Positions 36,801 to 39,800 of a DNA stretch of 64,000 nucleotides are shown in pieces. This DNA is from Escherichia coli. Lineage in GTDB: Bacteria; Pseudomonadota; Gammaproteobacteria; Enterobacterales; Enterobacteriaceae. The stretch's first letter is position 1; every line of letters starts with the position of its first letter. The DNA is taken from the NCBI RefSeq assembly GCF_016026235.1, contig NZ_CP065613.1; one strand, given 5' to 3'. Made by a program: the position numbers.

Positions 36801-39800
36801 CCTGTAGTGCCGCCAGCGCCGAGCAACACAATAACAGCATCAACCATATCTACCCACGCATCGCCCGTGTGCGTAGCGTGGAAGAGATCCTTCACGCGTT
36901 ATGATCTACATCGGTCTACCGCAATGGTCGCATCCTAAATGGGTGCGGTTGGGGATCACCAGCCTTGAAGAGTATGCCCGCCACTTTAACTGCGTGATAC
37001 GGGATTTTTAAAAATCACTAAAGAACGCCCAAGAGCATGTGTTTTCTTTAGAATAATCAAAGCGTTGGATTGCCATGTCATATGAAAATCGGCAAAGTTC
37101 ATATGTAACAAAGTGTCCCAATCATGCCCCAAAATGCCCCACAACAAATATTTTTGCCCCATGCATGCCCCAAAAAATCACTTTCCCTCACTCTTGACAC
37201 TGTTTATCCATACAGTTAAAAATAATACTGTATAAAAACACAGTGTAGAGGGATTTTTATGCGTATTGAAATCTGCATAGCCAAAGAGAAAATGACTAAA
37301 ATGCCAACCGGTGCTGTGGATGCGTTAAAGGAAGAATTAACCCGACGCATCAGTAAACGTTATGACGATGTAGAGGTGATCGTAAAAGCCACCAGCAACG
37401 ATGGCCTTTCTGTTACGCGCACCGCCGATAAAGATTCAGCTAAAACTTTTGTTCAGGAAACTCTGAAAGATACCTGGGAGTCTGCTGACGAGTGGTTTGT
37501 TCACTAATTAGCACGTAAAATCAGTAACGGCTGGAAATCATTCAATACTCGCACTATCGGAAGTTCACCAGCCAGCCGCAGCACGTTCTTGCATACGACG
37601 TGTCTGCGGTCTCAACTCCGCCCGCCCCCGCCAATCATGATTGGGCAGTACCAGTACAGCACTAGCAAAGACAGGAAATTAGCAGTCTCAGCAAAACACC
37701 GACCAGACGGTGAGAAGACAAAAAGATACGCAAAGATGCCGCGGTTCCAGAAGAATAAAAAACCGCTAATGGACAGCCTCCTTAACACAGTTTTTTATAT
37801 ACATGATTCACTGATACCAGTGGCATTAATAGCTATTATATAGCTTCAGCTCCTTTTTTCATACCTTAAGGAAAAATTGCCCCCTCCCCCAAAAAGTATC
37901 GTTTTTTTACATTAAACCGATCCAGTTTAGGATAGTGTAAAGCAGAAGTTCTTCAATATATAACATATGGAGTTAATATGCTTACACAAACTATATATCC
38001 GCCTCCTCCAGAAGTTCCTGTCTACTGCTGAAGGGAACCAATAACATTGCAAAGCAGATAAAAAAGAATCCAACACCTCTCAACATAAAGAATACGCCCT
38101 GATATTTATGCTCCCGACAAATAACAATCACAGATTAATTTCAAATTCGTTCTCCACTTATTCAATCGACACTAGCCGCGCATATGAAAATTATCTAACC
38201 CATTGGACTGAATGGAAAAATAACCGCATACAAGAAGAACAACGAGACATCGCTTTTCAGCGACTAGTATCATGTCTACAAAACCAAGAGACGAACCTGG
38301 ACTTGTCTGAATTAGGCCTGACAACATTACCTGAAATCCCCCCGGGAATTAAATCAATTAATATAAGTAAAAATAATTTAAGCTTAATCTCCCCATTGCC
38401 TGCGTCCCTTACACAGCTTAATGTCAGCTATAACAGACTTATTGAACTGCCTGCTTTGCCTCAAGGACTTAAATTATTGAATGCGTCCCACAATCAACTA
38501 ATCACACTACCCACACTCCCCATATCTTTGAAGGAGCTTCATGTCTCAAATAATCAATTATGTTCTCTTCCTGTTTTACCAGAACTACTGGAAACATTAG
38601 ATGTATCATGTAATGGGCTGGCAGTTTTACCACCTTTACCATTTTCTTTACAAGAGATTAGCGCAATAGGGAATCTTCTTAGTGAACTCCCCCCTCTACC
38701 TCACAACATTCACTCCATATGGGCAATCGACAATATGTTAACCGATATTCCATACCTGCCGGAAAATTTAAGGAACGGTTATTTTGACATAAATCAGATA
38801 AGTCATATCCCGGAAAGCATTCTTAATCTGAGGAATGAATGTTCAATAGATATTAGTGATAACCCATTGTCATCCCATGCTCTGCAATCCCTGCAAAGAT
38901 TAACCTCTTCGCCGGACTACCACGGCCCACGGATTTACTTCTCCATGAGTGACGGACAACAGAATACACTCCATCGCCCCCTGGCTGATGCCGTGACAGC
39001 ATGGTTCCCGGAAAACAAACAATCTGATGTATCACAGATATGGCATGCTTTTGAACATGAAGAGCACGCCAACACCTTTTCCGCGTTCCTTGACCGCCTT
39101 TCCGATACCGTCTCTGCACGCAATACCTCCGGATTCCGTGAACAGGTCGCTGCATGGCTGGAAAAACTCAGTGCCTCTGCGGAGCTTCGACAGCAGTCTT
39201 TCACTGTTGCTGCTGATGCCACTGAGAGCTGTGAGGACCGTGTCGCGCTCACATGGAACAATCTCCGGAAAACCCTCCTGGTCCATCAGGCATCTGAAGG
39301 CCTTTTCGATAATGATACCGGCGCTCTGCTCTCCCTGGGCAGGGAAATGTTCCGCCTCGAAATTCTGGAGGACATTGCCAGGGATAAAGTCAGAACTCTC
39401 CATTTTGTGGATGAGATAGAAGTCTACCTGGCCTTCCAGACCATGCTCGCAGAGAAACTTCAGCTCTCCACTGCCGTGAAGGAAATGCGTTTCTATGGCG
39501 TGTCGGGAGTGACAGCAAATGACCTCCGCACTGCCGAAGCCATGGTCAGAAGCCGTGAAGAGAATGAATTTACGGACTGGTTCTCCCTCTGGGGACCATG
39601 GCATGCTGTACTGAAGCGTACGGAAGCTGACCGCTGGGCGCTGGCAGAAGAGCAGAAATATGAGATGCTGGAGAATGAGTACCCTCAGAGGGTGGCTGAC
39701 CGGCTGAAAGCATCAGGTCTGAGCGGTGATGCGGATGCGGAGAGGGAAGCCGGTGCACAGGTGATGCGTGAGACTGAACAGCAGATTTACCGTCAGCTGA

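Follow-up and report, generated by a model that had tools for sequence, protein, structure and literature searches.

Does a dinI-like gene at the edge of a prophage, preceded by two LexA boxes, form an SOS-regulated unit of its own, or do the boxes serve other genes of the prophage? This question is raised by a locus within a 64,000 nt stretch of an Escherichia coli genome (contig NZ_CP065613.1; 64 kb, referred to as the window), for which a preliminary description had proposed an 82 aa DinI-family ORF under two tandem LexA boxes. The gene is very common prophage cargo and an unexceptional representative of a known class; LexA-controlled dinI genes of prophages are already known, by annotation since 2000 and by experiment since 2011. 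A description of the conserved second operator was not found in the searchable literature, and this operator is a modest addition. The best explanation, which we hold with good confidence, is a self-contained prophage cargo gene with a dual-LexA-operator promoter and, as its product, a DinI paralog predicted to bind RecA filaments. The features of the locus are listed in Table 1.

Table 1. Sequence features of the dinI-like module and its 5′ flank (positions in the window).
Feature	Position	Strand	Remarks
Host yecE, 5′ fragment	36901-36996	+	cut by prophage integration
Four direct TGCCCCA repeats	37125-37172	+	between integration junction and promoter
−35 hexamer TTGACA of the dinI-like promoter	37194-37199	+	sequence reading, promoter scan
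LexA operator 1, 20-mer CACTGTTTATCCATACAGTT	37198-37217	+	fills the −35/−10 spacer; 2 nt overlap with −35 hexamer
LexA box 1 CTGTTTATCCATACAG	37200-37215	+	CTGT-N8-ACAG; abuts −35 hexamer
−10 region TAAAAAT	37217-37223	+	TAAAAA with 17 nt spacer or AAAAAT with 18 nt spacer
LexA operator 2, 20-mer TACTGTATAAAAACACAGTG	37226-37245	+	directly after −10; over expected transcription start
LexA box 2 CTGTATAAAAACACAG	37228-37243	+	CTGT-N8-ACAG
Shine-Dalgarno GAGGG	37248-37252	+	6 nt 5′ of ATG; sequence reading
dinI-like ORF, 82 aa	37259-37507	+	stop codon included; DinI-family profile matches
3′ UTR of the module	37508-37575	+	accompanies the ORF in many phages
Terminator-type hairpin	37576-37609	+	predicted stem −19.5 kcal/mol; closes the module

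A promoter under two predicted LexA operators

The preliminary description had claimed a TTGACA −35 element overlapped and followed by two CTGT-N8-ACAG boxes 28 bp apart, and these coordinates were confirmed. The distance refers to the starts of the boxes, and the 12 bp gap between them contains the −10 element. In a promoter scan, TTGACA-18-AAAAAT reached 10/12 and was the joint-best match in 36900-38200, while a promoter-like match on the minus strand (37249-37222) was discarded because it only mirrors the palindromic boxes. Operator 2 is expected to lie over the transcription start, predicted at about 37229-37232. Across the aligned sequences with two boxes, the −10 element is kept as [T/A/C]TAAA[A/T]AT.

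Operator strength was scored with a LexA weight matrix made from 24 E. coli operators, which gives approximate absolute scores. Only five sites of at least 12 bits were found in the window, among them a weak one at 3247 and the host operators of yebG (17.7 bits) and ruvAB (19.5 bits). Box 1 (21.2 bits) and box 2 (22.3 bits) have the two highest scores of the window, and both outscore these host operators. Heterology-index-like values of 6.2 for operator 1 and 3.9 for operator 2 are in keeping with those of real operators, and both sites fit the LexA operator consensus TACTGTATATATATACAGTA. The window contains three occurrences of the motif CTGT-N8-ACAG, compared to 0.64 expected; the third of them (39942-39957), with a heterology-index-like value of 14.8, falls under the matrix threshold and was treated as a chance occurrence. 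When the window was simulated 300 times with a first-order Markov model, sites of at least 18 bits appeared with a mean of 0.013, and none of the 300 simulations contained two sites of at least 12 bits at a distance of 10-60 bp.

Further, both operators are conserved. Nucleotide diversity among 32 close alleles is 0.014 in operator 1 and 0.004 in operator 2, compared to 0.086 in the inter-box spacer. Within the ORF it amounts to 0.013, 0.006 and 0.069 at codon positions 1, 2 and 3, respectively (these values replace a crude synonymous/non-synonymous count over all alleles, which mixed in distant homologs). The boxes are thus as little diverse as non-synonymous codon positions, 5-20 times below codon position 3 or the inter-box spacer. 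Two boxes are retained in 37 of the 44 distinct combinations of allele and upstream region in the 81-82 aa class, where they sit 39-42 and 12-16 nt 5′ of the ATG. The pair is present despite diverged box sequences in VT1-Sakai, JLK-2012, Citrobacter phiNP and others, and relatives with as little as 55% protein identity still have both boxes, box 1 in the same position but with a different sequence; a Klebsiella subgroup has a single LexA box.

Among these relatives, the distance from box to box ranges from 26 to 29 bp. This variability argues against helically phased cooperative binding and, consequently, any tighter repression by the pair would come from independent occupancy only. Cooperativity has been reported for some multi-operator SOS promoters, but it is not to be assumed for the dinI-like promoter. 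Such promoters (lexA, recN, colicin genes) likewise carry more than one LexA box over one promoter, but in other spacings and layouts, whereas here the boxes flank the −10 element. In Salmonella, more than one LexA box per promoter is listed for recN and lexA (PMC8072944, table).

A precedent for the proposed control is given by the dinI homologs of the prophages Gifsy-1, -2 and -3 (STM2621 and relatives), which are also prophage-borne DinI paralogs behind a LexA box; replacement of the box region in Gifsy-2 abolished induction by mitomycin C (PMC3121763), and nalidixic acid induces the Gifsy homologs 4.6- to 23-fold (PMC8072944). LexA control via two operators, as predicted in the preliminary description, is strongly supported by the sequence, the position in the core promoter and the conservation, and has an experimental precedent in Gifsy. 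Tight repression and strong induction, which had been claimed as well, would follow from the presence of two strong predicted operators.

A DinI paralog with a retained RecA-contact surface

The ORF directly downstream of the boxes had been assigned to the DinI family, and this assignment holds. It matches Pfam DinI (PF06183) across the complete model (positions 1-63 of 63; E = 1.4e-19), the E. coli DinI structures 1GHH and 7YWA over the full length (E = 3.7e-13) and PHROG 189 (E = 5.7e-31), although in the latter case the protein covers only positions 71-149 of the 151-position profile. PHROG 189 also comprises Tum. The coliphage 186 tum and the split tum of PSP3 and Fels-2 are LexA-controlled phage genes with a DinI-like part (PMC3121763); however, about 70 aa at the N-terminus of Tum make up an antirepressor half, whereas the window protein consists of the DinI part alone. 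With the NCBIfam DinI equivalog NF007893, 73 bits were obtained against a cut-off of 111, a score at which orthology with the chromosomal DinI is not assigned. Judged by its sequence, the 82 aa protein is a DinI-like paralog distinct from the product of host dinI. It shares with chromosomal E. coli DinI (1GHH; RecA-DinI complex 7YWA) the fold family, the length and the C-terminal WESAD(D/E)WF, and both are SOS genes, but the window protein is a paralog under the equivalog cut-off.

E. coli DinI contacts RecA by a hydrophobic pocket (L13, L21, W71, W77, F78) and an acidic patch (E24, E69, D76; PMC9926225). In an alignment with E. coli DinI, the equivalents in the window protein are M15, L23, W73, W79 and F80 for the pocket and E26, D71 and E78 for the patch, i.e., five of the eight contact positions are identical and three are conservatively replaced. 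Outside this surface, the proteins differ by a 2 aa insertion and many substitutions. Positions 71 and 78 differ among alleles; in the window protein they are acidic, with a residue unlike that of E. coli DinI.

The insertion and the substitutions off the contact surface, together with the 73 bits under the equivalog cut-off, would also be expected of a protein which has diverged from DinI function and acts, for example, on another partner that recognizes DNA-like surfaces or in competition between prophages, LexA providing the timing only. Moreover, induction was not significantly affected when the Gifsy dinI homologs were removed by non-polar deletions (PMC3121763, reported there as data not shown). 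Nevertheless, we judge such a divergence very unlikely, since none of the eight experimentally validated RecA-contact positions carries a non-conservative replacement, and the acidic character at the allele-variable positions 71 and 78, even with residues other than those of E. coli DinI, speaks against it as well.

Boundaries and 3′ end of the prophage module

The dinI-like gene is flanked by truncated yecE on one side and by ipaH and tail-fiber genes on the other. The annotation of an identical EIEC genome shows an incomplete CDS at this place and, after it, the DinI-like gene, ipaHd and tail genes; the same yecE junction is found in other E. coli genomes. Modules identical or nearly identical to this one are present in mEp460, cdtI, Stx-converting and other lambdoid phages. 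Thus, the prophage origin proposed earlier was borne out: a lambdoid prophage has integrated in yecE, and the module lies at its right end, adjacent to the ipaH effector gene.

Between junction and promoter, 4 of the 13 TGCCCCA matches of the window are clustered within 48 bp, and similar ATGCCCCA repeats occur at the equivalent place in VT1-Sakai and JLK-2012; these repeats are candidate arm-type sites of the integrase. Homology with phages having a different integrase module starts at about 37191, just 5′ of the −35 hexamer, and inter-phage homology of the module stops right after the hairpin. The stem of this hairpin is preserved across variants by compensatory changes (CAG/CTG, CGG/CCG, TGG/CTA). 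It is followed by TTTTTCTTTTT in mEp460 and by TCTCAACTCC in the window, where the T run of several relatives is absent. The 3′ UTR was considered as a conserved sRNA, but with a diversity of 0.051 it varies nearly as much as synonymous sites (0.069) and shows no sign of extra constraint. An Rfam scan of the whole window detected nothing near the dinI-like gene and only SraC/RyeA and SdsR/RyeB at approx. 7.9-8.8 kb.

The closest described relative is H0001 of VT1-Sakai (AP000400), which belongs to the same clade with 95% protein identity, lies at a prophage end next to the attachment site and has the same 3′ UTR and hairpin. In its record, a promoter is annotated together with a “putative SOS box,” which corresponds to the homolog of operator 2; only this proximal box is annotated. 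VT1-Sakai differs in a diverged promoter with the boxes CACTGGTTATCCATACAGAT and ACCTGTACATAACTACAGTT, 29 bp apart, and in its integration site, which is yehV instead of yecE.

The promoter in the VT1-Sakai record is labeled “putative promoter of H0001 and H0002,” which fits a different reading, namely that the dual-operator promoter mainly serves downstream cargo: transcripts would read through into ipaH, coupling the effector to DNA damage, with dinI as a leader. In favor of this, no canonical terminator was found on the + strand in 36900-38200, the hairpin in the window is followed by TCTCAACTCC rather than a T run, and relatives carry same-strand cargo 3′ of dinI (espV in JLK-2012, hicAB-sat in phiNP and an acetyltransferase in EC9682). 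However, the compensatory changes preserving the hairpin, which has a good U-tract in many variants, speak against read-through. In intact phages, the adjoining gene is a tail-fiber gene in convergent orientation. Finally, the start of ipaH is located 600 bp further downstream, and the gene has an MxiE box of its own (37896-37912) with one mismatch. We therefore consider this reading improbable. Based on the hairpin with its compensatory changes, the convergent neighbor in intact phages and the separate MxiE box of ipaH, we conclude that the module is a self-contained single-gene unit consisting of promoter, Shine-Dalgarno sequence, ORF, 3′ UTR and terminator hairpin.

The Gifsy prophages suggest one more role for the boxes. 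Gifsy dinI is located in the nin region as first gene of an operon of dinI, antirepressor and irsA, and small ORFs follow dinI in Gifsy-1, mEp237 and Chris1. The present locus might accordingly be a remnant of such an induction operon, the boxes of which would really control a small antirepressor inactivating the prophage repressor. These partners are absent here: a tblastn search of the window with the downstream proteins of Gifsy-1, mEp237 and Chris1 and an irsA homolog yielded no counterpart (best E = 0.53, in unrelated places). Small ORFs in 37508-38107 are unannotated in identical genomes and not conserved, i.e., a conserved ORF does not follow the dinI-like gene. The location differs as well, since the module adjoins the attachment site, between this site or the integrase and the tail-fiber genes, and not the nin region downstream of replication genes. 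Further, the Gifsy proteins form a separate DinI clade (77 aa compared to 82 aa, about 42% identity) with another promoter layout, in which one box overlaps the −10 element, 18-19 nt 5′ of the ATG. The tblastn result, the missing conserved ORF and the terminator hairpin after the gene largely refute a Gifsy-type antirepressor operon, to which we assign a negligible probability.

Proposed regulation and distribution in E. coli

For the self-contained cargo gene, we infer LexA binding, the timing of induction, RecA binding and an effect on prophage induction or mutagenesis as steps of a model. The near-consensus sigma-70 promoter would be subject to two strong operators, one in the −35/−10 spacer and one across the transcription start. 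As long as the cells are undamaged, LexA dimers bound at either operator should shut out RNA polymerase; expression of the dinI-like gene is therefore predicted to be very low and to be switched on only after a deep fall of the LexA pool. Upon DNA damage, RecA filaments would cause LexA to cleave itself and the dinI-like promoter would fire, giving a transcript of approximately 380 nt which ends at the hairpin. The 82 aa DinI paralog, with its retained RecA-contact surface, would then bind RecA filaments. Host dinI has a single LexA box in the published E. coli LexA regulon, in contrast to two strong boxes here, and the conserved double operator predicts a later switch-on than that of host dinI.

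An extension of this model is that the conserved strong operator pair sets a high, switch-like SOS threshold and that the terminator, deprived of its U-tract in this EIEC/Shigella-type island, allows transcription to proceed into ipaH under deep SOS, independently of MxiE; we regard this combination as unlikely. Experimental work on this promoter, the protein clade or the two-box layout was not found in the searchable literature; a preprint on radioresistance of EDL933 concerns the chromosomal dinI.

If the paralog acts on RecA filaments, prophage-borne DinI proteins could alter RecA-dependent events, for instance, the induction of Shiga toxin phages or SOS mutagenesis. Modules matching the region were detected in 4007 of 5426 complete E. 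coli genomes, which is about three quarters, and also in prophages carrying Stx, Cdt or effectors. Due to this commonness, many pathogenic strains carry additional DinI paralogs under predicted LexA control.

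Promoter and operators of the dinI-like gene

The arrangement given in the preliminary description, a TTGACA -35 element and two CTGT-N8-ACAG boxes 28 bp apart (start to start), is fully present at 37194–37243, and an 82-aa ORF of the DinI family lies directly downstream, as had been claimed. Written as 20-mers, the boxes are operators 1 (distal) and 2 (proximal). Operator 1 shares two bases with the -35 hexamer and fills the promoter spacer, while the expected transcription start is covered by operator 2. In a promoter scan, TTGACA-18-AAAAAT scored 10/12.

Features of the dinI-like module, its downstream region and the LexA-matrix sites of the window
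Feature	Position	Sequence	Remark
Weak LexA-matrix site	3247		13.0 bits
Host yebG operator (presumed)	16269–16288		17.7 bits
Host ruvAB operator	31532–31551		19.5 bits; upstream of ruvA
-35 hexamer	37194–37199	TTGACA	sequence reading
Operator 1, 20-mer	37198–37217	CACTGTTTATCCATACAGTT	
LexA box 1, 16-mer	37200–37215	CTGTTTATCCATACAG	sequence reading; 21.2 bits
-10 element	37217–37223	TAAAAAT	inside the 12-bp gap separating the 16-mers
Operator 2, 20-mer	37226–37245	TACTGTATAAAAACACAGTG	
LexA box 2, 16-mer	37228–37243	CTGTATAAAAACACAG	sequence reading; 22.3 bits
GAGGG	37248–37252	GAGGG	sequence reading
dinI-like ORF	37259–37507		82 codons; ATG at 37259
Terminator hairpin	37576–37609		predicted -19.5 kcal/mol
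MxiE box match	37896–37912	GTATCGTTTTTTTACAT	one mismatch
ipaH ORF	38108–39859		intact; 583 aa

The window contains three CTGT-N8-ACAG motifs, where 0.64 would be expected. For scoring, a LexA weight matrix was built from 24 E. coli operators of the published regulon, and its absolute values are approximate. Only five sites in the 64 kb reached at least 12 bits. The host yebG and ruvAB operators among them served as internal positive controls, the former being a site upstream of purT which we take to be the yebG operator from the expected position of yebG. In 300 first-order Markov simulations, windows contained on average 0.013 sites of at least 18 bits, and a close pair of sites was found in none of them. 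Values resembling a heterology index, computed from the same 24 operators, were 6.2 for box 1 and 3.9 for box 2; the training sites ranged from 0.9 to 9.0.

Conservation of the two-operator architecture

Across 80 near-identical viral loci, both CTGT...ACAG pairs are retained in every upstream variant; the differences lie in the spacer between the boxes and in the flanks, and in a few alleles the spacing is 27 bp rather than 28 bp. More diverged relatives keep two boxes of altered sequence, e.g., CACTGGTTATCCATACAGAT and ACCTGTACATAACTACAGTT in VT1-Sakai (29 bp apart) or CACTGTATGTATGACCAGTT and AACTGTATATTCAACCAGTA in Citrobacter phiNP (26 bp apart). The boxes of JLK-2012 are diverged further than those of VT1-Sakai and are also 29 bp apart. 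Nucleotide diversity across 32 close alleles was 0.014 in box 1 and 0.004 in box 2, compared to 0.086 in the inter-box spacer and 0.051 in the 3′ UTR; codon positions 1, 2 and 3 had values of 0.013, 0.006 and 0.069, respectively. By these values, purifying selection acts on both operators and on the DinI-like protein. The conservation rules out that the boxes are chance occurrences or lack a function.

In a census over all retrieved loci, the class of 81–82-aa proteins comprised 44 distinct protein-plus-upstream combinations, 37 of which have two boxes, located 39–42 and 12–16 nt ahead of the ATG. The proximal box stands alone in seven alleles of Klebsiella type; in the loci L087, L107–L109, L121, L126 and L129 of this type, the single box lies 14–16 nt before the ATG. 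This subgroup of the 82-aa clade either lost the distal operator or never had it, and provides a natural comparison for what a second operator adds. In the 77-aa class of Gifsy and mEp237, a single box lies 18–19 nt before the ATG.

A LexA box adjoining a dinI homologue is known from Gifsy prophages (Lemire et al., 2011; PMC3121763), where deleting dinI in a non-polar manner did not significantly alter induction (data not shown in that study). In a survey of the Salmonella SOS response, each of the three Gifsy dinI homologues is listed with a single box at 19 nt from the ATG, and their induction was 4.6- to 23-fold (PMC8072944). Compared to this single-operator type, the 82-aa clade has an extra LexA operator between -35 and -10. 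The GenBank record of VT1-Sakai marks a “putative SOS box” together with a promoter before H0001; of the two operators, only operator 2 corresponds to this box. In the literature searched, the second operator is not described, and no experiments on the 82-aa clade were found. Membership in an antirepressor operon of the Gifsy type was rejected, since homologues of the antirepressor or irsA and a conserved ORF downstream of the dinI-like gene are absent, and since location and DinI clade differ. The second operator, conserved across the clade, is the only, modest addition to a module of known kind.

The DinI-like protein and a proposed mechanism

The protein matches the whole Pfam DinI domain (E = 1.4e-19) and PHROG 189 (“RecA filament binding protein DinI”), and aligns over its full length with E. 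coli DinI (E = 3.7e-13), for which the structures 1GHH and 7YWA (RecA–DinI complex) are solved. According to the cryo-EM study of this complex, substitutions in the pocket L13, L21, W71, W77 and F78, and likewise in the acidic patch E24, E69 and D76, impair filament stabilisation (PMC9926225). In our alignment, these residues correspond to M15, L23, W73, W79 and F80, and to E26, D71 and E78; five of the eight are unchanged, and the other three are conservatively substituted. With 73 bits, the protein stays under the cut-off of the NCBI DinI equivalog model (111 bits) and is therefore a paralogue, in agreement with its database name “DinI-like family protein”. The identical protein sequence is found on at least 1000 contigs.

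LexA control, as initially proposed, is supported at the sequence level: the operators match the consensus, cover the promoter and are conserved. Judging from sequence, position and conservation, LexA dimers on both operators would occlude the promoter. Following established SOS biology and the precedents, DNA damage would lead to RecA filaments, LexA self-cleavage and firing of the promoter. Two strong operators acting independently would have a multiplicative effect on repression and make the response steeper, so that basal expression should be low and onset late. The variable distance of 26–29 bp argues against fixed helical phasing and obligatory cooperative contacts. The retained contact residues suggest that the protein binds the RecA filament groove, and the phage might benefit by filament stabilisation, a block of UmuD cleavage or modulation of repressor cleavage.

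Downstream region and prophage context

The stop codon is followed by a 3′ UTR of 68 nt and the hairpin, whose stem shows compensatory changes among variants (CCGCAG/CTGCGG, CCGCGG/CCGCGG, CCGTGG/CTACGG, CAGTA/TACTG). In mEp460 and several others, a T-run follows the stem, i.e., the signature of an intrinsic terminator. The hairpin of the window has the tail TCTCAACTCC instead, owing to a different sequence joined directly onto the stem, and termination may be leaky here. With low probability, the promoter might thus also place downstream cargo under SOS control, among it ipaH, 600 bp beyond the dinI-like gene; same-strand cargo is frequent in relatives. However, the terminator hairpin is conserved, and an MxiE box match lies about 200 bp upstream of ipaH, the only one in the window (0.03 expected by chance). 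With a box of its own, ipaH apparently retains a separate promoter that depends on type III secretion. Its product is identical to a protein that bears the name IpaHd in E. coli. The EIEC strain CFSAN029787, otherwise identical, has frameshift annotations for ipaH and for several tail genes.

An EIEC chromosome is 100% identical across 36990–38110. Its gene order is aspS, yecD, truncated yecE, DinI-like gene and ipaHd, followed on the opposite strand by tail-fibre assembly, tail fibre, lom, J and the remaining lambdoid tail operon. The gene described as prophage-borne is therefore located at the right end of a lambdoid prophage integrated in yecE. The module lies between integrase and side tail-fibre genes in mEp460 and 1720a-02, and directly inside the attachment site in VT1-Sakai and JLK-2012. 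Phages with a different integrase share homology from about 37191, immediately ahead of the -35 hexamer, to about 37610, just past the hairpin. Of 5426 complete E. coli genomes, 4007 have matching modules, which also occur in phages carrying Stx1, Stx2, Cdt or effectors; the module is ordinary, very widespread prophage cargo.

The adjoining segment 37610–37748, in which no annotated gene, convincing ORF or Rfam match was found, is shared, at an identity of about 95%, by many prophages in yecE of E. coli that carry other cargo in place of ipaH. Elsewhere in the window, Rfam picks up the SraC/RyeA and SdsR/RyeB sRNA pair at 7903–8049 and, some 800 bp beyond it, a weaker RyeA-like match of 51 bits (8732–8831), which may be a partial duplication. 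Four direct TGCCCCA repeats occur within 48 bp (37125–37172), after the yecE junction and ahead of the dinI promoter, and VT1-Sakai and JLK-2012 have similar ATGCCCCA repeats in the corresponding position; they are candidate arm-type integrase binding sites of the attachment site.
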